DNA from: an uncultured virus (IMG/VR IMGVR_UViG_3300027820_000030)
Taxonomy: Duplodnaviria; Heunggongvirae; Uroviricota; Caudoviricetes
Length of the DNA: 64,000 nucleotides
Strand: one strand, 5' to 3'
Virus record (IMG/VR): IMGVR_UViG_3300027820_000030
The notes under the pieces were generated by a model, which saw only the letters and a list, made by a program, of their open reading frames with translations, was not told the origin of the DNA and searched no databases. Made by a program: the position numbers and the translations under genes. The number at the start of each line of letters is the position of its first letter. Positions within the stretch are counted from its first letter, which is position 1. Shown in pieces: positions 1 through 64,000 of this stretch.

Positions 1-191
1 GATACAGTGAAACATATTACGAGATACACGCGTATCTAATTGATGTCTGCTCGTATTCTAACGAGGCTGCACATGATTACATTTTAGAGGCTTGCCCGCA
101 TGTGCTGGCGCATGATTTTGTGCCAGCGCCCGTTACAAGTTTGGAGTATGAAGAATGACCAAAAACACAGGCAAAGCATCGTCGCCAGGAT
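1..191 (+). repeat. Direct repeat, copy 1 (matches 39909-40099; may extend left of the window)
   Basis: 191 bp match with 2 mismatches (positions 128 and 153). Confidence 0.95.
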
Positions 192-340
192 ACCGAAAAG
201 TCGCGACAATATACTGCCCAATCTACGGCTACGAGATAGAGCGCACTATTTGCGAGCACGACGATGTTTGGCTTGTTGACGTTTGGGGCGTTCCGTATCG
301 GTGGGAGTGGGTGAAATCAGTGAAGGTGTATTGGCGATGA
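155..340 (+). CDS. Hypothetical protein; first 12 codons shared with 40063-40197
   Basis: ORF with ATGA overlaps at both ends. Confidence 0.6.
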   Translation: MTKNTGKASSPGYRKVATIYCPIYGYEIERTICEHDDVWLVDVWGVPYRWEWVKSVKVYWR

Positions 341-606
341 ATATGGAGCCGTTTAATTTTTGCATACAATGGATGGTGTACGATTATTTGCCAACCCTGA
401 AAACCGGAGACTTCCTACCTGGTCAACTTTGCATGCCCGATAGGATAGGCGTTGAGCGAAAGACGTATCGAGAAGTGTTACGCGTTCTGGATTTCCATGG
501 AGTTATAAGTGTCAAGCATGGCAAACCCACAAAGTTCATAAGCCTTAACAAGCCTGGACTGCTGTACGTCATGGAGCGTAAAGGCTTAACTGGTCAAACC
601 ACATAA
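337..606 (+). CDS. Stand-alone GntR/FadR-type winged-HTH protein
   Basis: IGVERKTYREVL...GVISVKHGKPTKF aligns with E. coli FadR IGVTRTTLREVL...GWLTIQHGKPTKV; no C-terminal effector domain. Confidence 0.8.
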   Translation: MNMEPFNFCIQWMVYDYLPTLKTGDFLPGQLCMPDRIGVERKTYREVLRVLDFHGVISVKHGKPTKFISLNKPGLLYVMERKGLTGQTT

Positions 607-626
607 TCGAAAAATGGTGGTATATT
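591..626 (+). promoter_or_regulatory. TGGTCAAACCA box + 19 bp + TATATT (-10) promoter
   Basis: Same motif and spacing at 6 loci. Confidence 0.75.
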
Positions 627-674
627 AACCACACTAACAACACCGCAGCAGTATCGCGGATAACGGAGATACTC

Positions 675-851
675 ATGCGTAGAAGAAATATAGAGGCACC
701 TTTTGTACAAATTAGCAAGAATGCTAAGATTTTTGAGTGCGGCATTTTGGTCGCTATTGTTCTTACTGTTTTTGCCTTTGCTGTTTGCTCTGTCGGGCCA
801 ATGATTATTGGTGATTCACTACCGGAAGCAACCAAGGCAATCACAGAATAG
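675..851 (+). CDS. 58-aa single-TM membrane peptide (not in ORF track)
   Basis: GGAG RBS; copy at 41135-41311 differs mostly at synonymous positions in this frame. Confidence 0.7.
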   Translation: MRRRNIEAPFVQISKNAKIFECGILVAIVLTVFAFAVCSVGPMIIGDSLPEATKAITE

Positions 852-858
852 TTTCAAC

Positions 859-931
859 GCCACCGGCAGTCACGCATAATTTAACTGTTAGCGCAGTCGC
901 GATGTGTGGCTACCTCAAACCGGTGGCTCCA
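859..931 (+). ncRNA. 73-nt structured RNA with acceptor-like stem and 3' NCCA
   Basis: GCCACCGG/CCGGTGGC-T-CCA closing stem, inner stem AGTCACGCAT/ATGTGTGGCT; conserved at 41319-41391. Confidence 0.5.
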
Positions 932-945
932 TTTTTGGAGGGAAT

Positions 946-1569
946 ATGATTCACAGCGTAGAAGACAAAACACAAAAAGAACTTGTCGAGATTGTCAAGA
1001 TTCAGATGGAGGAATACGAGAAGTTATTAAAGACTGAAAAGCAAACCGGAGCAATGCTGAACGAAGCGCTGGAGGCTCTCAAAGCAGCAGAGCGTGAGCG
1101 GGATGATTTGGAGAAACGACTATCAATTTACGAAAGTAAGGATAATCAATATGCGAATAAATTAAAAAGAATGCTGAAACTGCAAGCGCAGCTACACAAA
1201 AAGCAAGGGGCCGAGTCTCTTGGAGTGTTATTTGATAGCGCATTGTCAGAGATTGAAGCGTTAGAAAAGCGCGAAAAAGCAGTAGATATAGAACGGTATG
1301 TATTATCTTACTGCCTAAATTTCATTAAAGATTTCGCAACCCATGATTCTGAGAGCAAAGACGCTGCTTTTTTACGACTGAAAAACACTATTAATGACAG
1401 CCATGTCAGAGCTAATGAGCTCTTAAACAAATTCGCCATTGAGCAGCAGATTAAAGGAGCAAAAGCAGCAGGAAGCAAGTTAATTCAAAGTCATGAAGGA
1501 CAAAAGAAGCAATGGTTTGATGAAGTCTTTATTGGTCAACTACGCCAACAACTAAACGGGGGTGAGTGA
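946..1569 (+). CDS. Coiled-coil hypothetical protein
   Basis: GGAGG RBS before ATG 946; heptad-rich, charged. Confidence 0.7.
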   Translation: MIHSVEDKTQKELVEIVKIQMEEYEKLLKTEKQTGAMLNEALEALKAAERERDDLEKRLSIYESKDNQYANKLKRMLKLQAQLHKKQGAESLGVLFDSALSEIEALEKREKAVDIERYVLSYCLNFIKDFATHDSESKDAAFLRLKNTINDSHVRANELLNKFAIEQQIKGAKAAGSKLIQSHEGQKKQWFDEVFIGQLRQQLNGGE

Positions 1570-1691
1570 TGATTCTAACACGCTGGCTAAACGGCTGGAC
1601 AATCGAAAACATAGCAGCAAAGCACGGCATACGCGTTGAAACTGTTGTGGCTTATTTGCGGGTTCGTAGTGGGGAGTGGGTGAGCCGGTAA
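1569..1691 (+). CDS. 40-aa HTH-like micro-protein
   Basis: GWTIENIAAKHGIRVETVVAYL HTH pattern; homolog at 41406-41525. Confidence 0.55.
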   Translation: MILTRWLNGWTIENIAAKHGIRVETVVAYLRVRSGEWVSR

Positions 1692-1692
1692 T

Positions 1693-2133
1693 TTAACCGG
1701 CTTTACCACCAAACTTACCCATAGCCTTTTCAACGATAGCGCCCATGTACGGGGCTGAGAAGTAAAACGCCAATATCAGCATCATGGCCCCGTTCATCTG
1801 TTCAGCATAACCACCAATGACAGTTGCGCTTGCTCGCCATTGCTCAGGCTGTGAAGCCCATACAGCAACCAAATTCATTACCATGCTAAATACATACATA
1901 AACAGCCACACAAACGTAATCATGACCGCAAGAAGCCGCCTTGCTAGGTTTTGTCCGCTAGTGTTAGCCATCCAGTCTATTATCATCTTTCTGGCTTCTG
2001 CGCGCTCTGTGGCTGCGTCTGCCGCCTTCTCTTCGTCAGTATAGAATAGCGCGTCGCCTGCATCTCGAATCATCGAGACGCCTTCTTTTACGACATCAGA
2101 TGAACCAAACAATCTACCCCAGAAACTAGCCAT
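1693..2133 (-). CDS. Putative holin (3TM-type)
   Basis: Hydrophobic segments, adjacent to lysin. Confidence 0.6.
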   Translation of the reverse strand: MASFWGRLFGSSDVVKEGVSMIRDAGDALFYTDEEKAADAATERAEARKMIIDWMANTSGQNLARRLLAVMITFVWLFMYVFSMVMNLVAVWASQPEQWRASATVIGGYAEQMNGAMMLILAFYFSAPYMGAIVEKAMGKFGGKAG

Positions 2134-2525
2134 TAGCTTGCAATCTCCAAAACAAAACTATCTTCACCATACCACTGTAAAAGTAATTCGCAAGCTTTCA
2201 GTGAATCCACCGCGACAGGTTCGCTGGTCATTGGTCCGCCTTTAATGTCTAGGCATGGGGCGACGCAGCCCAGCAGGTGCTTGAGTAGTGACGCGGGGTG
2301 AATCTCAATATTGGTACGAGGGTCAGTTTCTTCGTTGCGGAATTTGTACCAGTGATGCTTGCCGGTGTGGTCACGGTCAACGATGTACTGACCTTCTGGG
2401 ATGCAGGATTTGCCGATTTGGTTATTACGCCAGGGTAGCTCCAATGTGTAGATTAGCTGGCCGTCTGGTAGATACCATTCGCCAGCCGTATAGTGTTTGT
2501 GGTAGTTACGTTTAATTGCTGCCAT
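2133..2525 (-). CDS. Putative endolysin, DUF5675 / L,D-transpeptidase-like
   Basis: TLELPW..N...SCIPEGxY and IEIH...GC motifs; lysis-cassette position. Confidence 0.7.
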   Translation of the reverse strand: MAAIKRNYHKHYTAGEWYLPDGQLIYTLELPWRNNQIGKSCIPEGQYIVDRDHTGKHHWYKFRNEETDPRTNIEIHPASLLKHLLGCVAPCLDIKGGPMTSEPVAVDSLKACELLLQWYGEDSFVLEIAS

Positions 2526-2853
2526 AGTTCAACAAGGCGACTATAACAGCCGCCACCCCAGTACCACCAAGCAATGCAGCGGTTACAACCTTCCATATCA
2601 GCCCGCGCACACCGTCAACAACAGGCTTCATTGCTGCGATAGTTTCACTATGCACATCTAGCTTGTTTTTAACAGATGATAACTCAGCGCTAACCGTGTC
2701 GTGTTTCGACGCGTATACAGCAAATTGCGTTGCCTGATTATTCATAGCATCAGTGAGCCTATCTAAAGAAGTGAGCACTTTCGTAGTGCCTTCCTCTAGT
2801 GAAGATATGCGGTATTGGTGGTCGTTAACGGTCTTTTGTAATTCTTCGCTCAT
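2512..2853 (-). CDS. Coiled-coil protein with C-terminal TM helix (lysis accessory or holin-like)
   Basis: Composition and position. Confidence 0.55.
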   Translation of the reverse strand: MSEELQKTVNDHQYRISSLEEGTTKVLTSLDRLTDAMNNQATQFAVYASKHDTVSAELSSVKNKLDVHSETIAAMKPVVDGVRGLIWKVVTAALLGGTGVAAVIVALLNYGSN

Positions 2854-2876
2854 GGGATTTCAACTGTTTAAGCAAT

Positions 2877-3251
2877 TTAATTAATAAAAGGCCGGAAACT
2901 GCTACCAGTGCGCAACCGATGCACAATATTACTGACAGCACTTAGACCTCCGTTGACTATTATAGTTAATTCAAAGGATAACAGAATTAAACTAAAGTTT
3001 AACGGCCAGTCATATAACACGGGGAAAACATCATAACCGGCTAGTAAAAATAGATAAAATGCGCCCAAAATAAACTGCATTGACGCATATATGGTCGTGA
3101 TTTTACTAGGTATTTCGGAGCAAATAAAGATAGTCAGCGTTGTTGTTAGTAACAACGCTGTATAGTAAGCGGAAAATGAAGCATCATAAAAAATAAATTG
3201 TACTGCATAAACCAAAATATAAGATGCAAGTATTACCTTGCAATCGTTCAT
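2877..3251 (-). CDS. Multi-TM membrane protein
   Basis: About 4 hydrophobic segments; positional counterpart at 43456-43920. Confidence 0.6.
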   Translation of the reverse strand: MNDCKVILASYILVYAVQFIFYDASFSAYYTALLLTTTLTIFICSEIPSKITTIYASMQFILGAFYLFLLAGYDVFPVLYDWPLNFSLILLSFELTIIVNGGLSAVSNIVHRLRTGSSFRPFIN

Positions 3252-3343
3252 TTCTTAGGTGGCTTCCGGTTTGTCTTGCTTGTGTCGCGAGGTTTCTTCC
3301 TGCCTACTGGCATCGCGCTGCGACCTTCTGTTTTGGTGCTCAT
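3248..3343 (-). CDS. 31-aa highly basic micropeptide
   Basis: MSTKTEGRSAMPVGRKKPRDTSKTNRKPPKK; stop overlaps next start (ATGA); positional counterpart in unit B. Confidence 0.45.
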   Translation of the reverse strand: MSTKTEGRSAMPVGRKKPRDTSKTNRKPPKK

Positions 3344-3353
3344 AACTCAATCC

Positions 3354-5186
3354 TCAACTTTGGCTAAAATACCAACCGCTCAACGCGATTCGAATATTGC
3401 TAGTAGATGCTGGTATGTTCGACGTACCAACCTCTAATCCGTTTGTGCTAGGGTCATTTTGTCTAAACTCTATATAGCTGGAGCCAGGAATAACCGAAGC
3501 GCTCAAAAACATAGTATCATCAAACGTTACATTTTGTACAACACCAAGACTACAGGCGAAATCATAAAATGATATTCCTGCTGCACCGGCTGTTTTCGAC
3601 GTAAACGGAAGTGATGCTATTCTGAAATTGCCTGACGCTGTGGTAAACGCATTGGTGTCAAATCTTACTGTCATAGCAAAATACACCATGTCGCCTATTT
3701 TTCTATACGTACCTTCCTGAATGAGATAGGTGGGCGAGAAGTCGCCAGGTGTCGCAAATGTTACAGTTGGTGTAAACGTCCCGCTGGTTGGCGTGAAATT
3801 TCCGGCACGGATAGTTTGCTCAACGCCCTTTGATGAAACAGACAGCCCCATGTTTTTCGCAATTGTCTGAGCCATGTTTTTATGACCGGCAGGTGTGGGG
3901 TGTGCGCCATCAGATAAAAACCCGTACGTATCGCGAAGCTCAGATATGCTTAACAATGAGCCGTCACTGCTTAATAGGTCCGGCAATGGGATATAAACAG
4001 CGCCAGCGACCTCGCTTGCCATCTGCCTTAATTCCTGTCTAATCCATGTTGACGAGTCGTAACCCCAGTTTGTATCAATAACATAAAGCTTTGTTTTGTT
4101 GCTCTTGACCTGTGTGACAAGGTAGTCAAGCTTGCTTGCTACTGTCACTTTCTCACCGGCGCTAGAATCCCTGTCGTTGTACCCTAATGCAAAAATAAGC
4201 GTCTCAGATGTACAGGCATCGTCAAAAACACTGTTATCCGTATGAAGAATTTTGCGGCCAGGGTCAGAAAAATTGTTAACGACGAAATCATCAAACGCAT
4301 TCAGATATTGGATACCTGTGATTTCAACGGTTCCCGACACCACCTCAATTCGAATGTCAGAAGTACCGTCACCACTGTCCACCATTGCGACCAGTGGAGA
4401 TATGGCCGAACCATCCTCTGTGGCATTACTGTCTACTGTTTGTTGTACAGTGCCGCCACCATTGTTCGAGATAGTAAACGTACCGCCGCCGCTAAATGCG
4501 CGATAAAAAACCCTGAATTGAGTTGTTTCAAATGGAACATTGAAATCAAGATAATCTCCAGGTGTAGAGCTATACCGAGAAAACCCATTGATAACAGTCG
4601 TAGCGTCACCAAGGTTTTTAAAATTCCATGAACCGCTAGTTGTCACTGAGTGGTAGTCGTTGTATGTACCCTCGGCATTGGTGGCAACACCCCTGGAACT
4701 GATAAATCCTATGCTTTCTGAGCCGTTTTCCAGCAAAAGCAACTTGCGCAGCACTGCCGCATAACTGTCCGAATATACGTCTGGACAGTTCGAACCCCAA
4801 CTTATGGAGTCACCCAAAATACTAACAGATCGTCCAGACCATTTATCAGTAATAGTGGATTTAACGCCGCTCAACATGTCGCCCTGCGGCTCACGCGTGT
4901 CCACGTACTTGAATTTTTCAGTAATTGATATATAGCTATCAATGCTATTCACACTAAGCCGGTACTCTCCAGGCTCAACGTAAACGACCACCTGACCATT
5001 CGAGTTGGTCGTTTTTGATGTAGCGCCGTTGGTGTAGAATTCATCGTCATACATTATGGCAACTACACCCGATTCTCTGTGGTACATCGAGCAAACCGCA
5101 CCGGTTACAACCTGTTTTCCGCTAGACTGAGCCGATGCTGTGTCTCGCTCTAGCGCTGTTATCGTATGGGGTACAAGTGCCATCAT
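3354..5186 (-). CDS. Tail fibre / receptor-binding protein with SGNH hydrolase domain
   Basis: ILGDSIS, ALGYND, DGAHP SGNH blocks; C-terminal fibre-tip-like beta domain (GTYRKIGDMVY). Confidence 0.75.
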   Translation of the reverse strand: MMALVPHTITALERDTASAQSSGKQVVTGAVCSMYHRESGVVAIMYDDEFYTNGATSKTTNSNGQVVVYVEPGEYRLSVNSIDSYISITEKFKYVDTREPQGDMLSGVKSTITDKWSGRSVSILGDSISWGSNCPDVYSDSYAAVLRKLLLLENGSESIGFISSRGVATNAEGTYNDYHSVTTSGSWNFKNLGDATTVINGFSRYSSTPGDYLDFNVPFETTQFRVFYRAFSGGGTFTISNNGGGTVQQTVDSNATEDGSAISPLVAMVDSGDGTSDIRIEVVSGTVEITGIQYLNAFDDFVVNNFSDPGRKILHTDNSVFDDACTSETLIFALGYNDRDSSAGEKVTVASKLDYLVTQVKSNKTKLYVIDTNWGYDSSTWIRQELRQMASEVAGAVYIPLPDLLSSDGSLLSISELRDTYGFLSDGAHPTPAGHKNMAQTIAKNMGLSVSSKGVEQTIRAGNFTPTSGTFTPTVTFATPGDFSPTYLIQEGTYRKIGDMVYFAMTVRFDTNAFTTASGNFRIASLPFTSKTAGAAGISFYDFACSLGVVQNVTFDDTMFLSASVIPGSSYIEFRQNDPSTNGLEVGTSNIPASTSNIRIALSGWYFSQS

Positions 5187-5191
5187 TTCAC

Positions 5192-7402
5192 CTATGGGTT
5201 GTCAGCACCAAGTACAGTGCCTGTGTTGATCCAAGTAATAGTATATCCGTTTCTCTCGATGGCCGCACCTGCCGCACCACCTGAGCCGCCACCAGTCTGA
5301 CCAAGGTCGCCGCCTGCAAACCCTGTAGCGGTAAATATGCCGCCAGCGCCATCATCGGCAGTCGCTATACCTCCAGCGCCGCCAGTCGTGTTGTCGCCAT
5401 TCTGTGCAGGGGTAATGTCGATGGCATTAACAGGCGGCGATACAAAGCTGCCTGTAGCGCCTAGGCCGTTAGTATATCCCGCACCGCCGCCACCAGCGCC
5501 AAATGCCGATACACCGCCACTCGATGCGCTTTGACCATTAGCGCCCCCGCCGCCCCCGCCAATAGTGCCTGAGTTGTCAATCTGCACATTGGTTTCAAGG
5601 TATAAGGCTATACCGCCAGCTTCCGGCGTGCCGCCAAGGTTCGCGCCATTACCGCCTTTACCAACAATAAGCCCCCTGACATCAAGTATTGGGTCATTAT
5701 TGAAGTAGCTAAAATCACCCGTTGACACGGCGGGCTGTGTGTTATCACTGCTACCAGCGACGCAGAAGCCATCAAAAATAATCCTAACCTGTGTGTCTGC
5801 ATCATAGCTTGACGGCGGGTATTGGTCGTCAAATACATCGCGAAGCGTCCGCGCAGTACCACCCGCATCTTTCAACTGGTCAATCTCACTGGATAGTTGA
5901 ACTACAAGCACGCCCTCGTCAACGCCTTCGTCCTGTGATAGCTCTTGGCCGTATGAGTGCTCAAGACAAGTGTAACTGAAATTATCCGACTCCTGCGCCG
6001 ACATAACCTCAACAGGTAAGTCAATACGGGCGTTTGTGTTATCCACAATCGTCCTAGTGTTAACGTAAGCATTACCAGCGGTCCATACGTCGGTGTCTTT
6101 CGAATCCAACTGGAACGATATTTCGATGGGTGCTTTCGAGTATCTGCGGCCCCATCGCGCGGCCAGCAGGATAGCAGCCGCTTTGTTATCATTGTTAATC
6201 CAGCGACAGTTAATCGTTTTGATTTTCTGTGAGCCATAATTCGATACGCTATCAGGGTCGATGCGTACATATCCCTGTTGATAGTTGGTTATCTCGTCAA
6301 GGTCTTTGGCGTAGTCATATATGCCAAAATTCACAATGACAGTACTAACCCGCATATCAAGCTTATCCTGCCACGACACGGTATCAGCAAGCAGCTCACC
6401 CTCGTCTGTCCATGTAGGCACGGATGATGAGAAATCTTTAATCGCGACAAATGATATTTCTGCCAGCCGCTCATCCCAATACAGGCGATGCGGCGCTTCC
6501 ATGCCTAATTCTTTCAGTAGGGTTTTAATACCTACCGGCTCAGTTAGCAGCGTGTAGTAGTTGCCAGGAAGGTACGCGCTACGCTCTGCCGCCCACTTCG
6601 ACGTTGGAATGTAGGAAGAATCAAGACCCGCACCGGTAACAAGTAGCAGGTATAAGATATTGTCAACAGTATCTTGAATCTCGACGCATTCCTGCACGGT
6701 GTCATCTGCGCTATGCGCGTCGGCCACGGTGTTATATTGCGCTCTAACTACCGTCAGTGTGTCACTGCCACTGGTGCGCGTGTAGGTCATTATCTCGTCA
6801 TTAATGCGGATGATGCCACTAGTGCCGTGATTAGCATCGCCTGCGCCCGTAGGTGACAAGGTAATGCTGGTTGCAGCATCAGTAATATCAGCGCTTAGAT
6901 AGCCGGTTGATTTTGGTGGATACTGCGCACGGTCATTGTCAGCGAATTTAAGCGGGTCGCGGCCTGTGATAGACACGCCTGAAGCGGTTTTCTTGAACGA
7001 GTCCAGCAGGTAATGGCGAGCCTGAAATGCGTTAGTGTCAAAAGTGAATTTATCGTCTAGGTATCCAGAGTATACCCGCATAGGAAAACCCTGATAATAC
7101 GGATATGTAGCCCTCCATAGAGGCCAAAAATCTACAGGGTTTCCAGGTGTTGAAAGCTCGGTCTCGTCATTGTGGTCGCGAATGTTTACCGTTACTCGGC
7201 CACGGATGCCGATGCCGCCTTCTGGGTCAATCGATGTTGCACCGAACGACGGAGTACCCGCAACAAATGGCGCAGCATCAAGACCAGGAGGAACAGGCGA
7301 GCGGTCAAGGCAAAAGCGAAATGTCGTGCCGTCACAGTCAATCTCCACATAGTAAAATGGGCGCTTTACTGCTTCTTTTTTCGCGTTGTTATACAGAGCC
7401 AT
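5192..7402 (-). CDS. Tail tip / hub protein with C-terminal glycine-rich adhesin-like domain
   Basis: Position downstream of tape measure and distal tail gene; GGGGGG motifs and ...GGAAGAAI...WINTGTVLG ending. Confidence 0.7.
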   Translation of the reverse strand: MALYNNAKKEAVKRPFYYVEIDCDGTTFRFCLDRSPVPPGLDAAPFVAGTPSFGATSIDPEGGIGIRGRVTVNIRDHNDETELSTPGNPVDFWPLWRATYPYYQGFPMRVYSGYLDDKFTFDTNAFQARHYLLDSFKKTASGVSITGRDPLKFADNDRAQYPPKSTGYLSADITDAATSITLSPTGAGDANHGTSGIIRINDEIMTYTRTSGSDTLTVVRAQYNTVADAHSADDTVQECVEIQDTVDNILYLLLVTGAGLDSSYIPTSKWAAERSAYLPGNYYTLLTEPVGIKTLLKELGMEAPHRLYWDERLAEISFVAIKDFSSSVPTWTDEGELLADTVSWQDKLDMRVSTVIVNFGIYDYAKDLDEITNYQQGYVRIDPDSVSNYGSQKIKTINCRWINNDNKAAAILLAARWGRRYSKAPIEISFQLDSKDTDVWTAGNAYVNTRTIVDNTNARIDLPVEVMSAQESDNFSYTCLEHSYGQELSQDEGVDEGVLVVQLSSEIDQLKDAGGTARTLRDVFDDQYPPSSYDADTQVRIIFDGFCVAGSSDNTQPAVSTGDFSYFNNDPILDVRGLIVGKGGNGANLGGTPEAGGIALYLETNVQIDNSGTIGGGGGGANGQSASSGGVSAFGAGGGGAGYTNGLGATGSFVSPPVNAIDITPAQNGDNTTGGAGGIATADDGAGGIFTATGFAGGDLGQTGGGSGGAAGAAIERNGYTITWINTGTVLGADNP

Positions 7403-8738
7403 GACCGGTCTGACTCCAGTTAATTGACATTAAGTTGCGGGTTCCGCTGAACTGTAACGATATGTCACCGCCAGTCATGCACAATCCGACCTCGTTAGGG
7501 TATTCCAGCAAGTTCCACGCAATGAAATAAAGATATTCTTTCGAAACCTCTTTAAAGTCTAAGAAATAATTCTGTATCCAAGTTCTATCTACGTTATCCA
7601 GTGACACGCTATTGCTAAACCCCTTACGGATAATGCTGCGAGACGTGAACTCGCCGCCGTCAGTCATGTTGTTACGGTATACCGTATTGTCAGCCATGGT
7701 AATAGGCGTATGCCCGCTAAAGAATGGGCGCTGCAATTGCAGAGCGATGCCTGCTGAGATATAACCTATACCTACCGAACCTGTGCCGCTGCACACGATT
7801 TTTATCCTGCGAGCCGACACCGTGCCGCCAGTGTAGTGAAACATGAGCGGTGTGTTGTCAGTCGGGTTTTTACCTGTGGTTAATGGCGTGAATGAACCTG
7901 TCGTTCCAGCTGACCACTCAGCGCCAACAGAAAACAGTGACGTTCCCAGTGTATGAGCGCCTACGCATATTGTGTCAATATCAACGTTAGCGGGTAATGT
8001 AATGGTAATCTCTGCGCCGCCTGTGAATGTCCATTTTTTGTATGTGTTTGGCACTAACGCATAAGCACCATTGGTGCCGGTTGTCACTGACACGCTATCG
8101 TAATTTAGCAGCAGGTTGTCATACAATATCCGCGCATGGTTAAGCGGGAAAGGTGGCGTTGTGGCTGTGCCGCTCGTAGCTGTTATCGCTGTCGGAGAAG
8201 TTATTGCCGCTGCTGACTGTGGCGTTTTTGCTGTCGGGGCAGAAATGGATGCGCCTGAAACAGATGACAAAGCAGAAGGCGACGAAATGCCCGCTAGTGC
8301 CTCGGCGCTCCACGCCACAGGGGATGATATAGAGGCGGCAGAAGCTGCGCTATAAGATGTTGGCGATGTAATACCAGCAGCCGATACAGACGAATAGTAA
8401 GCAGGACCGCTAATGGACGCAGTAGAGACTGGAGAATGAGCGCTTGGTAGTCCAATCGACGCATCAGCAATTCCGCTAAATAGCAATGGTGCAGATATAG
8501 ACGCAATTGACACAGCAGTGCTTGCCGACGGCGCAGTTACGGATGATTCGCTGACAGCCGAATATGACACAGGCGTAGATATGCTACCGGCAGACACAGC
8601 GGATAGCGCATCAGGGTCGGTTATGCTCGCCCCGCTAACAGCAGTTACAGCAAAGGGTGAGTCAATAGGCCAAGCCGGTGACGGCGTTAGCGCTCCCTTG
8701 TTTGATGTAACGCTAAAGTCTGTAGGTAGCGCAGTCAT
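7389..8738 (-). CDS. Distal-tail-like protein with N-terminal 14-aa Ser/Ala/Pro repeats
   Basis: About 12 xPxxxSxVSxASIS-type repeats, then a globular domain; follows tape measure. Confidence 0.65.
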   Translation of the reverse strand: MTALPTDFSVTSNKGALTPSPAWPIDSPFAVTAVSGASITDPDALSAVSAGSISTPVSYSAVSESSVTAPSASTAVSIASISAPLLFSGIADASIGLPSAHSPVSTASISGPAYYSSVSAAGITSPTSYSAASAASISSPVAWSAEALAGISSPSALSSVSGASISAPTAKTPQSAAAITSPTAITATSGTATTPPFPLNHARILYDNLLLNYDSVSVTTGTNGAYALVPNTYKKWTFTGGAEITITLPANVDIDTICVGAHTLGTSLFSVGAEWSAGTTGSFTPLTTGKNPTDNTPLMFHYTGGTVSARRIKIVCSGTGSVGIGYISAGIALQLQRPFFSGHTPITMADNTVYRNNMTDGGEFTSRSIIRKGFSNSVSLDNVDRTWIQNYFLDFKEVSKEYLYFIAWNLLEYPNEVGLCMTGGDISLQFSGTRNLMSINWSQTGHGSV

Positions 8739-8747
8739 TACGGCTCC

Positions 8748-8870
8748 TTATGGCGCGTCGATTGGTGCTGGCGTTACTGGTGTTGCGGCGCTAGGCGGTG
8801 ATACTGTGCCTTCACTAACCGGAGTGTTTGCGCTAGGCGCTGGAATTGTTGCCTCGTTTTCAGGTGTCAT
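8748..8870 (-). CDS. 40-aa mini-ORF made of the same 14-aa repeat
   Basis: MTPENEATIPAPSANTPVSEGTVSPPSAATPVTPAPIDAP; in frame with the downstream gene. Confidence 0.5.
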   Translation of the reverse strand: MTPENEATIPAPSANTPVSEGTVSPPSAATPVTPAPIDAP

Positions 8871-8871
8871 G

Positions 8872-11538: not shown

Positions 11539-11539
11539 A

Positions 11540-11956: not shown

Positions 11957-11985
11957 GGTTTAATCCTCATGGTTGATTTATAGTC

Positions 11986-52374: not shown

Positions 52375-52375
52375 G

Positions 52376-56085: not shown

Positions 56086-56086
56086 G

Positions 56087-56770
56087 TTAACACCTCTCTA
56101 CATAGTAGTAGTAAACATTGGTTTTTGTGTATCCTGCCGAGTCAGTGGCTTTTATGCAAAGCTTGTGCTGGCCCAACTTGTTAAACGTAGCAACTACCGA
56201 CGACGTGCTATCTGTCATAGTTTCGCCTGACAGGGTGAATTCAGCATCATAGGTAACACTTGCCAGTGTTCGACCTTCAAGCCAATTCGACCAATCAACA
56301 CTGATAGGCATAACCTGCTCAAACGTAACGCGCTGCGCATCACCGCGAACGGGCGTGTTGTAGAAATGATTATCCAATACGGGCCATTCTGTACCGCTAC
56401 CCATAGGCAGGGTTTCAGGATATTGAGACGGTGCGACTTCTACAGTCATGCGCTCTAACGACCTTTCTCCCTCTGCCGCTAATTGCAGTAGTGACGGGTC
56501 GCCTTGCTTACCGTAAAGCACAGCCAAAGACTTAGCGACAATCTTTTTCACCGGCCCTGCAAAATTAGCCGTTAACCCTGAGTCGTCAGACGCTAGGCTT
56601 TGTCCGTATGATTCAGGCTGGTAATAACCAACATCTAAATCAAGCTCGCCCATGCAATCATCAAGGATTTGCAAGCTGATAGAAATCTCATCACCTGTCG
56701 GGGTGACTGTTATGCCGCTAATGCGTATCCATGCCAAAGCACCGTTGACAATATCACCCTTGGTTATCAT
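56087..56770 (-). CDS. P22 gp4-like head-completion protein with C-terminal extension
   Basis: TKGDIV..AL, DDSGL, YP..LPMGSG. Confidence 0.85.
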   Translation of the reverse strand: MITKGDIVNGALAWIRISGITVTPTGDEISISLQILDDCMGELDLDVGYYQPESYGQSLASDDSGLTANFAGPVKKIVAKSLAVLYGKQGDPSLLQLAAEGERSLERMTVEVAPSQYPETLPMGSGTEWPVLDNHFYNTPVRGDAQRVTFEQVMPISVDWSNWLEGRTLASVTYDAEFTLSGETMTDSTSSVVATFNKLGQHKLCIKATDSAGYTKTNVYYYYVERC

Positions 56771-56930
56771 CTGTTTTCGCCTTACGTGGTGCGCGTTTTG
56801 GCTTTGAGTCTTTCGCGCTTTCTGCGGTAGTGGTGAAGCCTAGCGCGATGAATGATTCCAACTGAGCAGGCTTGATGACAGCCTGTAGAAGTTCGTCATC
56901 GTGCTTAATAAATACGGTTTGATGTGACAT
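56754..56930 (-). CDS. Small post-coat protein
   Basis: GGAG RBS, basic tail. Confidence 0.55.
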   Translation of the reverse strand: MSHQTVFIKHDDELLQAVIKPAQLESFIALGFTTTAESAKDSKPKRAPRKAKTDDNQG

Positions 56931-56942
56931 TTTACGCTCCAA

Positions 56943-56970
56943 TAAAAAAAGGGGCCGTAGTAGCCCCTTT
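56943..56970 (-). terminator. Intrinsic terminator after coat gene
   Basis: AAAGGGGCTACTACGGCCCCTTTTTTT. Confidence 0.8.
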
Positions 56971-56986
56971 AGTATACCGATAACGG

Positions 56987-58264
56987 TTATGCTTGTCCAA
57001 ACAACTGCTGGCCCCAGAATGGGTTGAAGCAGGCGAAGGTCGGCAACACGTCGAAACGGTAGCGGTTTTTGTTAGCAACACCGTCGCTGAACTTGTGAAC
57101 ACGGATTGAAACGCCTTTGTGATTCACAATCATTGAGTCAGTTGCGTGCAGCTTAGGCAGCACAACTGAACCCATGCCAACGAAGCCTTCATGGTACGCA
57201 AGCGCCGGACGATAGGTAGTTGATACAGTACCATCAATCACAATCGCGTCACCAGAAGTCAGCGCAGACGCTACGGTATTGAACGCACCATTTACACCAG
57301 TCTCATAGATAGCCGCACCAGATACGCTGATAGTAGCATTACCTGAGCCGTCAGCAGTCGCATCCTCAAGCACAGTCAGTGAAATTGGAACCGGAGCGCC
57401 ACCTTTCATGATTGTCTTGCGGTTACGCATGTTAACGATGTTGCGACCAGTGATTTTGATGTTCGTACCAGCAGTGATGGTGCCGGTAGTCGCAGTCAAA
57501 CCAGTGATAGACAGCGTCATGCGATACGTGTCTTTGTAGCCGGTGTAAGTTGCGCTAGGCGTAGCAGCCAAAGTGATACCAGTCAGGTCATTACCTAAAG
57601 TGATTTCAGGCAAGTTGTTGCTGGTCAATACTTGGTTAAAGCCTGCAAAGCGCTCACGTACAACCGCGCCAGCCCATGCTTCATTCACATTAGGGTTAAC
57701 GCCCAATGAAGTCTGAACGTCAGCCAATGCTACTTGGTCATAGTTAGACAGTGCGGCATACATCTTACCAGCAGGTACGCCGATTTCCTTGAACAATGCG
57801 CCAGCTTCTGCAACATGCGCCCACTGGTCAATAGCTTGGTCAGGGTCGCCGGTTTTAAGTGCAGCATTCTTAACCATGAATGAAGCAAGCTCTGATTCAA
57901 GCTCAATAACCAAATCCTCAGCGGCTGGTTTGATAAGCTCGTCAAGCTGGTCAGCTTCAAGCGCTTCTTCAACCTGGGTGTTTTCCAAGTACACAGTAGC
58001 GTAGTTAGACACTTCTGCCTGCACTTTACCAACGCGGATAGGGTTAGCAGACGCAGAAGACATATCACCGTCAGTGGTGCGCTGTGGCACGTACTGAGCG
58101 GGACGCTTCATTGCCACCTGACCGTAATCGCCATCAGTTGACGGGTCAAAGTCATTAACCAGCTGCTTTGATACGGTATTCATTAAGACAGTAGAAGACT
58201 CCATGCCTTTAACGAATGATTTCAACAATTTCTTGTTGACGTTACTTTGATAATCATTAGCCAT
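56987..58264 (-). CDS. Major coat protein (P22 / Sf6 family)
   Basis: MAN...SNV..K.LK.F, KRP.QY, RFDVLPTFACFNP. Confidence 0.92.
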   Translation of the reverse strand: MANDYQSNVNKKLLKSFVKGMESSTVLMNTVSKQLVNDFDPSTDGDYGQVAMKRPAQYVPQRTTDGDMSSASANPIRVGKVQAEVSNYATVYLENTQVEEALEADQLDELIKPAAEDLVIELESELASFMVKNAALKTGDPDQAIDQWAHVAEAGALFKEIGVPAGKMYAALSNYDQVALADVQTSLGVNPNVNEAWAGAVVRERFAGFNQVLTSNNLPEITLGNDLTGITLAATPSATYTGYKDTYRMTLSITGLTATTGTITAGTNIKITGRNIVNMRNRKTIMKGGAPVPISLTVLEDATADGSGNATISVSGAAIYETGVNGAFNTVASALTSGDAIVIDGTVSTTYRPALAYHEGFVGMGSVVLPKLHATDSMIVNHKGVSIRVHKFSDGVANKNRYRFDVLPTFACFNPFWGQQLFGQA

Positions 58265-58275
58265 GATAATTCACC

Positions 58276-59073
58276 TTACAAAAATTCAAGCTTCCCGTAT
58301 GTTTTCTCGAATTCATCAACTTCGAGCGCACCGCCGCCTTTTAAGTCAGGTTGCGGATCGGGAGCCTTAGACACTTTAGGCGTTTTAGATAAAGCCTTAG
58401 CTTTAATGTCAGTCGCAATTTTTACACTGGCTTCGAGTGGCGACATAGATAGCACTTCATACATTTCAGCGGGGTTATCCGCTAAGTACGTAATAACCTG
58501 TGGGCCGTTGGCATCCTTCATTAAGTGTGCCGCTAACTCTTGGCTAATACCGTGCTGATTAATTACCTGCTCTGCGCCGCGCAACTTATCAAGGTCTACG
58601 CCTGAACGCTGTGCGTTTTCAACGTACTTGTTAAGTATTTGCGATTGCTCATCTTGCTGACTTTTCTGCTGCGCCTGCTTTTGTTGGCCTTCATAAAAAG
58701 ACTTAGCTTTAACTTCCGCGACCTGCTCAGCATACGAAGCCATATCACTATGGTACTTGCGCATTGCTTCCTCATCGTACATATCAGACGGAAACTCAGG
58801 GCGTTTGATTTCGCTAATTTCCTGTTGAACCTGCTGCGGCTGTTGATTGCCTTGCTCAAGTTCTGCCAGTCGTTTAGCTAATTCGTCACGCTCGCGCTCT
58901 GCCTGATAGCGTTTTGCAGTAATGTCGTTAAATCGCTTTTGAATGCCGTTTTGTTTCTCTTCGTGGTTTTCTCCACTATCCGGTGATGAATCGGCGGGTT
59001 CATTTAACTGTTCAGGCTCGTGGATTTCCGTTTCATCTACGTCCTGCTCAATCTCATGGTTTGCATCTGTCAT
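58276..59073 (-). CDS. Scaffolding protein
   Basis: Acidic/Gln coiled-coil, IQKRF..ITAKRY; start reassigned to MTDANH. Confidence 0.8.
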   Translation of the reverse strand: MTDANHEIEQDVDETEIHEPEQLNEPADSSPDSGENHEEKQNGIQKRFNDITAKRYQAERERDELAKRLAELEQGNQQPQQVQQEISEIKRPEFPSDMYDEEAMRKYHSDMASYAEQVAEVKAKSFYEGQQKQAQQKSQQDEQSQILNKYVENAQRSGVDLDKLRGAEQVINQHGISQELAAHLMKDANGPQVITYLADNPAEMYEVLSMSPLEASVKIATDIKAKALSKTPKVSKAPDPQPDLKGGGALEVDEFEKTYGKLEFL

Positions 59074-59191
59074 ATTGTAAGCACCTTTTGGTGAATTAAA
59101 GCCGTGTAAATGACACGTGGCATGTGTTGACATTCTAATCCTACCAGTGATAATCTGACAAAAATAACGGGTATGATAAGGTGAACTGGTA

Positions 59192-59434
59192 ATGCCATAT
59201 GTAGCAACAAAGCGAAGCAGTAGAGAAGAGTTAACAAAGCTAATCAGATTGATACGCGACAAGTTTGAATTAAAGGTCGGCGACCAATTGCCCGACCAGC
59301 GCGGCGCATCTGAACTTGTGGGCGTGTCTAGAACAAAGTATCGCGAGGCAATAGTAAGCCTTACGTTTGCTGGATACATTGAATGCTTTCAGGGTAAGCC
59401 GTCTGTTGTTATTAAAGATATGAGGGATATATGA
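59192..59434 (+). CDS. Stand-alone GntR/FadR-type winged-HTH protein (unit B)
   Basis: GDQLPDQR..SELVGVSRTKYREA...GYI...QGKPS. Confidence 0.82.
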   Translation: MPYVATKRSSREELTKLIRLIRDKFELKVGDQLPDQRGASELVGVSRTKYREAIVSLTFAGYIECFQGKPSVVIKDMRDI

Positions 59435-60617
59435 AAAAATCCAAACTAGCACAATCCATCGACATCAAGCGCGAACACGATACTACTGTGGCGAACGTTC
59501 AAGACGCAATGAAGAAAATGATTCTGGCTATCGAAAACCAGGATGAGGAATTAATGGGCGAACTCGTAAAGCAGTACGGCGAACAAACTGTTAGAGCGCT
59601 GGGTAATAAGCTTGTCGAGCGCGGGCTATTGGGAAGGGCTGAGTATGGGCATTAATCGTGGCACGGGCAGGACTACCAAGCAAATGATTAACGCCAAGAA
59701 TGGCGCTGTATTCGCGTGGCCCAACCATCACCTGCAATACCCTAGAATGCTGGCTGAACGCATAGGGAGAGCCGACCTCAAAATAGCGTCAGCCACGAGC
59801 GTTTTTGCACGAGACAATTGGCGTGGGAACATGGATATAGTCGTTGACCACGCTTGCTATTATTTATGCAACCCAGCGACCCTTGAATCAATAAACGAAT
59901 ACTTCAATTGGCGCAGACATAAGCTCAACAGCGAAGGCTTCAATAATGATTAACTGGCAACAACTAGCAACGCCGCCCGAAGTAATGGGCAACATGATAG
60001 CTGAGGCTATCGCGTGGGCGCAGATGGATTTAGCTTACGACAGAATCAGCTACTCTGAGTTCCTGTTTGCGCTAGATGAAATTTTTGAATGTTTGGAGGA
60101 ATGGTGATGAATGAATTTATGCTTGAGTTGGTGTTTGGCTTGATTTGGTATTTATTGACAGGTTTTTGGTGTAGAAAGTTGGTAATGAATTACGGCACGA
60201 AAAAAGAGATTCCTATGGATTTTATACCATCCATCTGCTTTGTTCTGCTGTGGGCTTTGGTAGTGCCGCTAATTGTGCCAATAATGGCAGGGATTGACGA
60301 TGCGTTTAAGAAGGTGAAGGAAGGGGTTTTGTGATGGATAAGGACCAAAAAGTAATCGCCTGCTTGATAGCGGTGAATGTAGGTTTTATTGTTTTTGTGC
60401 TGTTTACGGCTTTGTTGGGGTTAAAATGAAACCACACATAAAGAAAGTTAATGGGGTTTGGGAGTGTAGAGGTGAAATTTACACTGGACGCGCAGAAACC
60501 CCAAAGCTTGCGTTGTATAACCACTGCCTATGCATCCAAGTTTACCCAACGGCCATTGTCAGTGATATTGAAAAGGTTATTGACTGCTGGCATAAGCGGA
60601 ATAACAGAAGGGGCTAA
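59431..60617 (+). other. Antisense island of small ORFs between scaffold and portal
   Basis: 59431-59655, 59645-59953 (RGTGRTT), ~60104-60334 (TM), 60426-60617. Confidence 0.65.
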
Positions 60618-60624
60618 CTAGCCC

Positions 60625-62661
60625 CTACTGCAATCCTGTTAACTTACGCGCATTCTCAATGCGCTTACTAACTGTGTCAGTGTTTTTATTCACTATGTCA
60701 GCGCTGGCCTTCTGCGCATCAATCGTAACCTTCTGGCGTTTGGTTTCTGCATCAAACGCCTTAACCTGGACCTCTGCCTGTTTCGTCAGCGCGTCAGCTT
60801 GGTCAGCCTTGGCTTTCTCCATCTCAGCCATTGCCAGCAGCGTATTAGCGTCTGGTTGTTGATTCTGAGCAGCGGCTTGCATTTGCTGTTTCTCTTCGTC
60901 TGTCATTTCATCAAACGGAATCAAGCCTTGTTGCAACATCTGCGAGCGGCGACGTTTAGAAATGATATCCATATAAGGCGCATCAACAGACTTAGCCATA
61001 ATATCACCAGCCATAGCCATCCACGTTGGGTCAGTCTTAGCCAGCTCAATAAGCGCATCACGGGCAGCTTCAAGACGGTTGCTGAATGCAGGTCCAGTAT
61101 CACAGTAAACCTGATAGCGACCTTGTGACAGGTCATTTAATACCACCATTTGCTGCGTCTGCGTGTCGTAAATCTCTTCGTTTAACACAACCTCTTCTTC
61201 GGTTCCATCCATGTTGAGAATGGTAAACTGTCTGCGAGTATCGTAGATAACCGGAATGGCTTCGCTCAATATCTCACCGGTGCGCTTAATGCCTTTAGCC
61301 AATGCGTTAACCCATTTGCGGGTTGTAGACATGCCGCGGTCAATCTGCATACGTAGCGCTTCTTCACTCATGCGTCCTGCATACTGCCCATTCATCGCAT
61401 TGTTAACGCCAGCAGTCACCAGCAGGCCCATAGCCATTTCTTGCGCCGTATTGGTTAAATGCGGGTTAGGTGTCGCGCCTTGTGTTTCGTATGGCGGCGA
61501 AGCTTCACCGTCTGGATTGTAGAACTGAACAGGGTCGTTATTCGTGTTCATTGTCGCAAGCTTCTTCTCGTGACCTTTAGCTTGCTTAGGTGTCATCATT
61601 AGCTTCTTCTTAGGAGCCAACGCGCCCTCTTCAATCTCACGCGAGCGGGCATAGTTCAGGACGCGGTTATAGTCCATCATCTTCATTGTGATGCCTGAAC
61701 AAATGCGCTTAGACGTAGAGCCCACTACTTCATAGTTGCCATACACAGTAACAACAGGGTTTGACCTGAACGCGGTTTCCTTCTCTTTGCTTAACCAGCC
61801 TTTACCGTCCATCATGCGGTAACAGAATTTACTGTCTTCGATTTCTTTCGTTTTGGCTACGGTTATTCCGCGCTGCGCCAACTCATCAACGACTCTCATG
61901 AACTTGTCGTCAATCTCATAGACTGAGCCGTTAGTCATTAATGCAACCTTGGTTTTAACCGGCTTGCGATAGTACTTGGTCGCAATGACAATAACTTCAG
62001 CCTCGTAATCGCTGAACTGGTCGTAAGTATGCGCGTCATCAATACTCACGCACGAGCCTTCGGGCCACTTCTCTTTGTATTCTTCCGGTGACAAGGAGTG
62101 CAACACATAGGTGCAGTCAGCATCTGAATTATCAGGCTGTGTGGCTGTAGGGTCTGTCCAAATACGATTAACAGCGTTTGGTATGGCCTCGATGCACAAG
62201 TCTTGCTCAAACGACCATGGGTGTGTGTATTTGTTCTTAACTATCCAGGCATCAAAACCACGACGCAAAATACGGCGGCCAGCATCACGATAAATATCGG
62301 TCGCGCCACTCATATTCTCAATCATGCGAATCATGCCTTCACGCAAGTCAGCAAGGTCACGACTCGCACCGTCAGACATTGGTCTTACGTTAATGGCAAA
62401 ATCCATATCTTCGATTTCACCGGCGATAAATTCAATAGCTGGCGTGGTCTGGTCAAACGTATATCGCGGCCTGCGGTTGCTGTCCATCTGACGGGCTACA
62501 TGCTCTTCCCATTGCCCATCCTTATCAAGCACAAACGCATCCTGTTCACGCATTAATTCCCGCATGTCGCGGTCTGCGTCTTGATACGCGCCTAATTCCT
62601 GTAGCGATGCGAGAAACTCACCATCTCTATCTTCTGCGCCTTTCTTACGTTTGTATGCCAT
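60625..62661 (-). CDS. Portal protein (P22 gp1-like)
   Basis: GQWE, RPRYTFD, GRYQV..DTGPAF..R, Gln-rich barrel tail. Confidence 0.9.
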   Translation of the reverse strand: MAYKRKKGAEDRDGEFLASLQELGAYQDADRDMRELMREQDAFVLDKDGQWEEHVARQMDSNRRPRYTFDQTTPAIEFIAGEIEDMDFAINVRPMSDGASRDLADLREGMIRMIENMSGATDIYRDAGRRILRRGFDAWIVKNKYTHPWSFEQDLCIEAIPNAVNRIWTDPTATQPDNSDADCTYVLHSLSPEEYKEKWPEGSCVSIDDAHTYDQFSDYEAEVIVIATKYYRKPVKTKVALMTNGSVYEIDDKFMRVVDELAQRGITVAKTKEIEDSKFCYRMMDGKGWLSKEKETAFRSNPVVTVYGNYEVVGSTSKRICSGITMKMMDYNRVLNYARSREIEEGALAPKKKLMMTPKQAKGHEKKLATMNTNNDPVQFYNPDGEASPPYETQGATPNPHLTNTAQEMAMGLLVTAGVNNAMNGQYAGRMSEEALRMQIDRGMSTTRKWVNALAKGIKRTGEILSEAIPVIYDTRRQFTILNMDGTEEEVVLNEEIYDTQTQQMVVLNDLSQGRYQVYCDTGPAFSNRLEAARDALIELAKTDPTWMAMAGDIMAKSVDAPYMDIISKRRRSQMLQQGLIPFDEMTDEEKQQMQAAAQNQQPDANTLLAMAEMEKAKADQADALTKQAEVQVKAFDAETKRQKVTIDAQKASADIVNKNTDTVSKRIENARKLTGLQ

Positions 62662-62672
62662 GCTATTTCTCA

Positions 62673-64000
62673 CTAGTAAAATGAGTCGAATTCGATTTCA
62701 ACACTTTCTGACTTGCCTATTTTGTTAGCCTGCACCGCGTGCCTGCGCATCATGTACGCATAACGGATAGCGTCAAGCAAATCATCGTTCACCTTAACTA
62801 TCTTGCCGTTGTCGTCACGGTGGTACTGTAAAAACTCATCAAAAACATCAGATAGGTTATCGAATATCTTGAATTTACCCAATTCTATCAGATTATACAA
62901 TTCTACCAAACCTTGTTCTACACTGGTCGCGCCGCCCTTGGCAGACGTACCCCATGTGGCGTGCTCGTGCAGCATATTCCAACCAGCATCCTCGTAGTAT
63001 GATTTCTGCTGATTACCTGTGCCTTTTTCAGTTTGGAACCCGTCAGCAGGCCATGCCGTTGGTGCATCTTTTGCCCATGATTTTACCTGCTGCCATGCTT
63101 GATACGGCTGCTGCTTCGACTTCTTCCATGCCCTAGCCACATAAAACACATCATTGTCTTTATCCCACCATAATTGTATATGCGCTTGCGGGTGGTCCCA
63201 GCCAAAATCCATTCCATCGATAACCCACCAATGAGCAGGGATGTCGAACGGCTTTTCGGAACACAAACTCTTAACGTCAAGGTCGAATATCAACCCAGCG
63301 CCTAACAATGGTATACCTTTAGTACGCATATCACGCTGCCATGCTGGGAACATGGCCAGTAATGTTTGTTTGGTTTCATCCGTTAAGTGCTGAGCATCAT
63401 CCCATGTTGCACGCTGAATGTACTGTCCTGGCTCTGGGTTGTCCATGAATTGAACGACCAACTCAGTGCGCCCATTCTCAGGTGTGAATGTAAGTATGCC
63501 TCTGCCGCCATTGCCTTTGTCGCCGGTAGCGGTACGGGTTAATACCTGCGGGTATATAAACCGGTCCTTCGGCTCTTCGTCGATGTGATACCAGTCAACA
63601 GAGTCACCCATCAAAGCATGTTGCCCCTGTGAGTATGACCAAAACTGACAACGTGAAACGCCACCAGATTTATGCTTAACCTTTACCTCGCGAACGCATC
63701 GCGGAGTGCCCATCATCGGGATGGCGTCTACAATCCTTTCTTTTGGAATTATACCGCCTTCTAATTCTCCACCTGAATATGAGCCGAATATTGGTTGTTG
63801 TAAGATGTCACGTATCTTGTCGCCTGAATAACCTAGTATCCAGACTAGCGGGGGATGCTTAAATCTGTGCCCTTCCCAATCTTCTGGATAGTCGCCGGTC
63901 AAATGCACAGCGTCAACAAAACAACCCGTATAAGACTTTCCTACTCGGTTGGCCGCCATTAAACATGATGCAATATTATCGCGAGTGGCGTTTACAAACT
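62673..64000 (-). CDS. terL: Terminase large subunit (P22 gp2-like), 5' truncated
   Basis: MAANRVGKS, IDEEP, LTFTPENG, GMDFGWDHP, DDLLDAIRYA; frame open to the window edge. Confidence 0.93.
   Translation of the reverse strand, partial: FVNATRDNIASCLMAANRVGKSYTGCFVDAVHLTGDYPEDWEGHRFKHPPLVWILGYSGDKIRDILQQPIFGSYSGGELEGGIIPKERIVDAIPMMGTPRCVREVKVKHKSGGVSRCQFWSYSQGQHALMGDSVDWYHIDEEPKDRFIYPQVLTRTATGDKGNGGRGILTFTPENGRTELVVQFMDNPEPGQYIQRATWDDAQHLTDETKQTLLAMFPAWQRDMRTKGIPLLGAGLIFDLDVKSLCSEKPFDIPAHWWVIDGMDFGWDHPQAHIQLWWDKDNDVFYVARAWKKSKQQPYQAWQQVKSWAKDAPTAWPADGFQTEKGTGNQQKSYYEDAGWNMLHEHATWGTSAKGGATSVEQGLVELYNLIELGKFKIFDNLSDVFDEFLQYHRDDNGKIVKVNDDLLDAIRYAYMMRRHAVQANKIGKSESVEIEFDSFY

Follow-up and report, generated by a model that had tools for sequence, protein, structure and literature searches.

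The question raised by this locus is whether a single viral DNA molecule can carry two sets of virion genes. The window analyzed here, a stretch of 64,000 nt, covers the first part (bases 1-64000) of a contig 75,425 bp long, for which a sequence-only reading had offered three options: a recombination cointegrate, a genome with two morphotypes, or an assembly chimera. We put the probability at about 95% that the contig is a chimera in which assembly fused the genomes of two distinct phages occurring together, designated A and B, at a near-identical block present in both; the other two options gained no positive support.

Family profile matches bear out the presence of two virion gene sets, one in A and one in B (Table 1). 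Phage A has the siphovirus combination of tail tube and tape measure without a sheath (no tail sheath match among the 79 window proteins scanned), and the virion genes of B follow the P22 order of portal, coat, gp4, gp10, gp7, and head-binding tailspike, although ORFs at the places expected for the gp26 needle, gp20, and gp16 (49569-52374, 52981-53259, and 54628-56085) match no such family. The predicted virions are long-tailed for A and short-tailed for B. Two further labels, a PHROG "integrase" match on the A scaffold protein (E = 5e-4) and "major head protein" on 49569-51122, were taken to be spurious, as better assignments exist. The two sets had been described as non-homologous, which holds for the portals and capsids (no BLASTP similarity, E 1e-3) but is slightly too strong, since remote homology is evident between the large terminases (28% over 129 aa).

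Table 1. Features of the contig, in contig coordinates.
Feature	Position	Strand	Remarks
Phage A, siphovirus-type gene set	1..39908		Complete circularly permuted genome, 39,908 bp; A-end joined to A-start in L004 and in the 39,657-nt contig of run X6
Exact 127-nt copy of 39909-40035	1..127	+	Contig base 1 falls within a gene (ORF continuity)
Promoter-like linker 1	588..624	+	TGGTCAAACCA box, 19 nt, -10-like hexamer; same 37 nt shared by A, B (40578-40614), C, D
A lysis cassette (putative)	1693..2853	-	
A lysis-cassette gene	1693-2133	-	99% aa identity to podovirus D
A DUF5675, likely endolysin	2133-2525	-	
A lysis-cassette gene	2512-2853	-	
A virion and packaging module	2877..25115	-	Tail fibre to TerS
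A tape measure	8872-10995	-	PHROG match
A tail tube	11540-11956	-	PF06199
Promoter-like cassette 4	16272..16325	+	Only in siphovirus-type A and C
A capsid, Gp13-like	17537-18496	-	
A portal	19225-20769	-	
A TerL	23437-24675	-	
A TerS	24669-25115	-	
Promoter-like linker 2	27963..28020	-	Same 58 nt shared by A, B (68162-68219), C, D
A replication module	31458..36192	-	Prim-Pol/primase (892 aa), VRR-NUC, SF2 helicase
A rightward early operon	36466..39890	+	Exonuclease VIII, unassigned genes, NinH
Promoter-like linker 3	38239..38294	+	Identical over 54 nt compared in A, B extension (L013), C, D
59-codon ORF over the join	39887..40066	+	A's own copy intact only across the A circular junction
Shared block at chimeric join	39909..40099	+	B alleles at 40036, 40061
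Phage B, P22-like podovirus-type gene set	40036..64000		Onward to contig end 75425, plus 2,913 nt in L013
B lysis cassette (putative)	42284..43920	-	3TM holin, DUF5675 likely endolysin, two further genes
B P22-like virion module	44025..64000	-	Includes scaffold
B head-binding tailspike	48401-49594	-	PF09008
B gp7	52376-52996	-	PF25688
B gp10	53243-54628	-	PF11134
B gp4	56087-56770	-	PF11650, E 3e-4, just over cut-off
B coat, P22 type	56987-58264	-	PF11651
B portal, P22 type	60625-62673	-	PF16510
B TerL	62673-64112	-	
B TerS	64109-64522		Past window
B Toprim primase	70372-71046		
B SF2 helicase	71036-72562		
B NinB	74365-74808		

The patchy repeats reported between A and B were recovered by alignment with E-values from 1e-11 to 1e-135. 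Within the window they pair 1-191 with 39909-40099 (98.95% identity, mismatches at 128 and 153), 588-628 with 40578-40619 (97.6%), 633-952 with 41088-41412 (92.9%), 1569-1681 with 41406-41518 (92.0%), and 2129-2510 with 42753-43149 (85.9%), and further blocks lie past its end (e.g., 26793-28020 and 66990-68219, 85.9%). The shared blocks include exact runs of 193 and 127 nt, and 8% of A aligns to the contig-borne part of B. The first block stops after codon 12 of a gene; from there on, A departs from B/C/D, where C and D are relatives introduced below. From contig base 1 the match is exact for 127 nt, with the first mismatch at 128, and this copy is likely an assembler k-mer overlap; PMC5923482 describes 127-bp overlaps at contig ends as a SPAdes artefact. 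The terminal repeat of D is likewise 127 nt.

Other assemblies contain A as a circle of its own, and the 39,908-bp junction suggested as a check is present in them. In L004, A 29946-39908 is joined directly to A 1-10042 at 100% identity, and both diagnostic sites carry the A alleles (L004 and L011 represent one 73,523-bp contig and were counted once), and in run X6 a single 39,657-nt contig crosses the circular join, missing only a 251-nt repeat stretch. The covering contig carries the A letters at 40036/40061 in four of the four runs compared, runs X7-X20, with small word shares, having been left out. Record G001 (73,523 bp) starts at A 10890, circles A, and exits into phage C; its A-to-C join lies at another site than the A/B join but again spans exactly 127 identical bases, and the record has no match to window positions 44001-64000. 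Conversely, G004 contains B 41332-64726 assembled without A. A metagenome scan for the upstream region of B, with a pattern allowing both alleles, returned two loci, both with A alleles. Record G003 (67,220 bp, same A-to-B join) was dropped as independent support and treated as the same assembly, being 100% identical with the same coordinates over all compared stretches.

The proposed comparison of coverage also separates the two phages. Contig depth, a rough measure that gives one figure per contig (all 20 runs listed are kept as contigs, not reads), is ∼6-7 times higher for A than for B in both runs that span both sides (94.3 vs. 13.3 in X1 and 131.6 vs. 23 in X2; long contigs with 0 differing letters), while the helicase region of B (11.4/23/12.3 in X1/X2/X3) tracks its portal region (13.3/23/14). 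These data bear on the possibility that a crossover between the two phages took place in their common block within co-infected cells and that the assembler followed a true recombinant molecule. The shared blocks are indeed long and similar enough to recombine, given their exact runs of 193 and 127 nt, and crosswise gene identities show that such exchange occurs in the group, but a cointegrate would not be expected to start precisely 127 nt ahead of the point where A and B first differ, and to do so in two records whose partners differ. Depth drops at the join, and the virion and replication genes of B co-vary as a single genome. P22-type headful packaging fills heads with ∼40 kb, and a molecule of ∼79 kb would be too large for them. 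We therefore regard a real cointegrate or hybrid as very unlikely, although a minority of genuine molecules with A on the left and B on the right may be present.

A single genome encoding two virion types from one replication module is more improbable still, to the point of being negligible. Within the 64-kb window a lone replication module can be seen, and neither virion module looks damaged, but the proposal of one replication module fails past the window end, where a second helicase and primase, belonging to B and at the depth of B, are encoded (70372-72562). A second recombination module lies in L013, which lengthens B by 2,913 nt with an Erf recombinase, a RuvC-like resolvase, and a pentapeptide-type gene. 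In addition, A alone is circular elsewhere, the depths differ, and the complete relative D (39,408 bp) has a single virion set. The L013 end converges on A 38236-39322 (86-88%), and thus B heads back to its own start; ∼550 nt of B upstream of 39909 were unrecovered and its circle was left unclosed, its full length being estimated at ∼39 kb.

The assembly chimera could have arisen if the assembler used a de Bruijn graph and k = 127 (we infer both assembler and k), with the A and B circles touching at a node formed by the shared block. The path would leave this node along the A branch, make one lap of A, return to the node, and exit via the B branch, leaving the exact 127-nt overlap at the contig start. 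Summed contig depth suggests that the shared stretch may extend back to ∼39473, a length that pairs of ordinary short reads would not resolve. The terminal overlap of SPAdes contigs (PMC5923482) is similar in its exact 127 nt at the contig start and in a circular genome traversed once; the overlaps described there are at contig ends only, whereas here the overlap is internal, the path having left A for another genome.

The two-virion genome is to be discounted. The case is cautionary: G000, G001, and G003 were rated 100% complete although each is a fusion, and in two of them phage A is fused differently, so that such records may feed false claims of gene neighborhood or dual morphotypes. What is left is modest: co-occurring phages, near-identical lysis-cassette genes across tail types, and module borders readable at base resolution, so that long reads could test for recombination guided by linkers in phages apparently lacking integrases.

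Common membership of A and B in one mosaic phage group accounts for the shared blocks. We compared them with C, which with A makes up the two siphovirus-type genomes, and with the podovirus-type D; all four have a common gene order and letter-identical promoter-like linkers. Even for a chimera, it had been proposed that siphoviruses and podoviruses with a shared scaffold have recently exchanged DNA, and this is supported by the identical linkers and by crosswise 99% genes: besides the A gene matching D, the 3TM holin of B is 99% identical (aa) to that of C, and two further B cassette genes are 99% and 90% identical to C. The shared "chassis" does have common blocks but is thin, with the 8% alignment given above and differing replication and recombination genes, the recombinases being Erf (B), RecT (D), Sak4 (C), and exonuclease VIII with an unassigned partner (A). 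The early operon of A also includes a pentapeptide-like gene with a 15-nt tandem repeat.

A sigma-70-like candidate promoter, comprising the box, 19 nt, and a -10-like hexamer, occurs in all four genomes as a sequence match. A motif match in B with a spacing of 15 was dropped as poor, and a shared phage-encoded regulator of the box was considered but not adopted, weak GntR-type ORFs being detected in A and B and none in C and D. Group members would trade modules by homologous recombination at these conserved linkers, which lie at promoters and gene boundaries, each phage relying on recombinases of its own, and the group likely trades gene blocks across tail types. It is an even call whether A-D and at least two more (L033/L041 and L039) form an integrase-less marine-sediment pool in which active re-assortment between identical linkers involves long-tailed and P22-like short-tailed virion modules as well as those for terminase, replication, recombination, and lysis, a lambdoid-style exchange across tail types without lysogeny.

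The source runs are from marine sediment. Cover of B is missing in X4, X5, and X6, which fits an absence of B where A or its relatives occur but is weak for contig sets. The nearest cultured phages suggest a possible gammaproteobacterial host, which A and B presumably share; a host search of genome contigs with the DUF5675 protein confirmed none of 138 pattern matches as relatives. For the head genes these cultured phages are Vibrio phages 234P9 and 340E47.2 (B) and Vibrio phage 1.116.O and Pseudoalteromonas phage AL (A), with genomes of 33.6-37.9 kb, similar in size to A and B, and a DNA identity of 66-72% over 16-28% of the 7.7-7.9-kb queries. None of 50,697 records in the DNA search covers 80% of any query.

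By analogy, the exchange resembles two phenomena that are already known, the shuffling of T4-type PeSL and lambdoid P22/ES18 mosaicism. The former, as outlined in PMC2839356, are conserved promoter-bearing cassettes at module borders that are proposed to mediate shuffling. Conserved candidate promoter cassettes lie at module borders here too, but there are three to four per genome, with differing spacers, each kept at a syntenic place between genomes rather than repeated within one, and they differ further in the TGGTCAAACCA box and in occurring in phages of 39-40 kb with two tail types. As for the latter, PMC10307801 reports that P22-type short-tailed and long-tailed ES18-like Salmonella phages have very different virion genes, shared early genes, and hybrids (STMP17). 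Early genes are likewise common across tail types in the present group, which also has the Nin-type genes NinX, NinH, and NinB, and its shared gene order and interchangeable non-homologous modules are of lambdoid type. The temperate control region is what differs, as tyrosine and serine integrases (PF00589, PF00239) each gave hits in none of four records (a search covering B except for ∼550 nt) and CI/Cro-type Pfam families had no match among the 47 small ORFs scanned; the replication genes and the marine sediment source also differ. The DNA of P22-like Salmonella phages is similar only in part of the terminase (∼65% over 6% of the head-gene query), and B falls outside Lederbergvirus, with no integrase found and no high DNA identity in the head-gene region and 36100-44000 as queried. 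The group works like the lambdoid pool but is no member of it.

We propose that the tandem arrangement in this record, a siphovirus-type phage (A, window 1-39908) followed by a P22-like podovirus-type phage (B, 40036 to the contig end at 75425), is a path through an assembly graph (probability about 95%), and that the headline two-virion feature is most likely an artefact. Such a path would loop round A and then exit into B at the shared block. Contig bases 1-127 are an exact copy of 39909-40035, with mismatches at 128 and then 153, and similarity stops at 191. An overlap of 127 bp is described as a SPAdes artefact in PMC5923482, and we infer that the record came from a SPAdes-type assembler. 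Contig position 1 falls within a 59-codon ORF that, for A, is whole only over A's end-to-start junction. A scan of viral records for the repeat returned four loci in three records, and a metagenome scan returned two. Locus L004 and its duplicate L011, which are one contig, pass from the end of A to its start with A alleles, L012 begins within the repeat and runs into A, and L003 is D, a different, P22-like relative. Among these loci the A-to-B join was seen only in L002 (record G003), which was rejected as a separate case since every stretch compared agrees fully with the window, at the same coordinates.

Sequencing depth also separates the two phages. Twenty runs were listed, all as contigs, and six (X1-X6) were compared by contig-level depth; some may be source samples, of which the depth contrast is independent. 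For region 30001-50000, long contigs with no differing letters had depths of 94.3 for A versus 13.3 for B in X1 and 131.6 versus 23 in X2, and the covering contig carried A's letters at 40036 and 40061 in four of four runs. One 39,657-nt contig of X6 spans A's circular junction, with coordinates that fit A minus a 251-nt repeat stretch. For region 56001-75425, B portal depths of 13.3, 23, and 14 match helicase depths of 11.4, 23, and 12.3 (X1, X2, and X3, respectively), and hence the virion genes of B behave as part of one genome with its replication genes. The contig covering 39473-40091 had depths of 103.1 (X1) and 151.3 (X2), near A plus B, but 240.5 against 244.2 in X4. These depths suggest that the whole stretch is common to A and B, in which case the exact switch point could be anywhere from ~39473 to 40035. 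Rare true A/B recombinants may exist alongside the chimera.

The assembly-path reading gains from a second fusion. Record G001 (73,523 bp) begins at A 10890, circles A once and re-meets its own start at 39924, where a self-overlap of exactly 127 identical bases is followed by C, a different phage of siphovirus type (1-39923 and 39924-73523; L004-L007); nothing in G001 matches the virion region of B, and this whole A then C carries a 100% complete rating. That A is fused to two partners, each at its own site but with an overlap of equal length, is what a graph artefact would produce and a stable genome would not. B is also found apart from A, as record G004 contains B 41332-64726 without it. 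Locus L013 is 99.95% identical to the final 8,265 bases of the contig and extends 2,913 nt beyond; this extension carries genes for an Erf annealing protein and a RuvC-like resolvase as well as a pentapeptide-type gene, and it converges on A 38236-39322 at 86-88%. The estimated size of B is thus ~39 kb (35,517 + 2,913 + about 550 unseen bases), similar to the 39,408 bp of D, which has a terminal repeat of 127 nt. Near its end, at contig 75399 (L010:19399), the record is two bases shorter than the contigs of three runs, likely an end-of-contig error.

Family scans of 79 window proteins, plus 29 selected proteins, bear out the two virion gene sets of the sequence-only reading, with no sheath match in the A set. 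Their claimed non-homology holds for portals and capsids, where BLASTP found no similarity between A and B, but not for the terminases, which are remote relatives. Self-comparison recovered every repeat previously listed, together with further A/B repeats past the window end (longest 26793-28020 = 66990-68219, 85.9%). The proposal of one replication module was wrong: B has its own primase, helicase and NinB (family scan), and a single module was apparent because the window edge cuts off B's replication genes.

Coordinates of gene sets and individual features in A and B
Feature	Position	Remarks	Basis
A virion set	2877-25115	terminase, portal, scaffold, Gp13-like capsid, tail tube, tape measure, tail fibre	family scans
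B virion set	44025-64522	terminase, P22 portal, scaffold, P22 coat, gp4, gp10, gp7, head-binding tailspike	family scans
B Toprim primase	contig 70372-71046		family scan
B SF2 helicase	contig 71036-72562	27% to A's SF2 helicase	
DNA methyltransferase genes (A and B), PAPS-reductase-family gene (A)	25421-26311, 29668-30669, 41522-42265	methyltransferases of A and B not alike	tblastn
Two lipase/GDSL-type hydrolase genes, A head module	window 13892-15505, 21919-23379	60-115-aa stretch matches N-terminus of large unassigned terminase-adjoining proteins of B (contig 64769-66499) and D (L009 17521-19539), 39-50%	
Moron-like small ORFs, opposite strand, both head modules	16344-17493 (+), 59192-60334 (+)	A's come after cassette 4	
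Small GntR-type helix-turn-helix ORF, A	283-606 (+)	terminates within first promoter-like cassette	Pfam E 4e-4, under cut-off
Small GntR-type helix-turn-helix ORF, B	59192-59434 (+)	different place from A's; none detected in C and D	44% over 48 aa
37-nt block present in each of A, B, C, D	25157-25193	in A just upstream of terminase genes; hairpin adjoining A-run, putatively terminator-like on minus strand	
15-nt tandem repeat, pentapeptide-like gene	window 38394-38737	one more unit in G001; shorter versions in B's extension and D	

The four genomes have a common gene order but share little DNA, the aligned fraction of the first-named genome being 8% (A-B), 34% (A-C), 12% (A-D), 11% (B-C), 7% (B-D), and 10% (C-D), with B and C incomplete. 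Modules assort crosswise (42 genes compared). The A gene at 1693-2133 is 99% identical to its counterpart in podovirus D, and in B the holin and the gene that follows the lysin show 99% identity to genes of siphovirus C. Capsid, portal, and tube are 97-100% identical between A and C, yet their terminases are of different families. B and D, both P22-like, have portals and coats only 38-41% identical. For replication and recombination, each of the four genomes has different genes. The DUF5675 protein is likely the lysin; a preprint treats DUF5675 as a peptidase-like lysin candidate (10.64898/2026.04.11.717860).

What all four genomes do share includes 19 exact blocks of 18-58 nt. An ORF end lies no more than 50 nt from 15 of these blocks, against a null mean of 4.5 (0/10,000 shuffles reach 15), or from 14 of 17 versus 6.6 expected in small-gene regions alone (P 0.0005), based on a hand-picked ORF list that includes unverified ORFs. 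The promoter-like cassettes consist of TGGTCAAACCA, 19 nt and a -10-like hexamer; three of them have one and the same sequence at syntenic positions in all four genomes, and only A and C share a fourth. Raw counts of box matches with the hexamer were 4/32, 3/14, 1/6, 4/27, and 3/14. A one-cassette scan gave 12 loci, of which seven were compared (one A, three C, three further members); the same linker is found in L033 and L041, and in L039, and L033 has a portal 55% identical to A's and another terminase type. The most likely origin of the shared blocks is homologous exchange at conserved borders when phages co-infect a cell, presumably driven by their own annealing proteins. Linker identity could also reflect purifying selection on regulatory signals, but such selection would not account for whole genes that are 99% identical crosswise to virion type.

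Searches with PF00589 and PF00239 found no integrase or resolvase in four records, and a comparison with 50,697 phage records found no close cultured relative. Among lambdoid phages, short-tailed P22-like and long-tailed types are known to exchange DNA (PMC10307801), and the group described here works alike but does not qualify as lambdoid or as Lederbergvirus on the temperate test. In T4-type phages promoter cassettes are described as shuffling points (PMC2839356), and here too the group would work alike. What remains is a known kind of modular exchange, of which this uncultured group is a new example.
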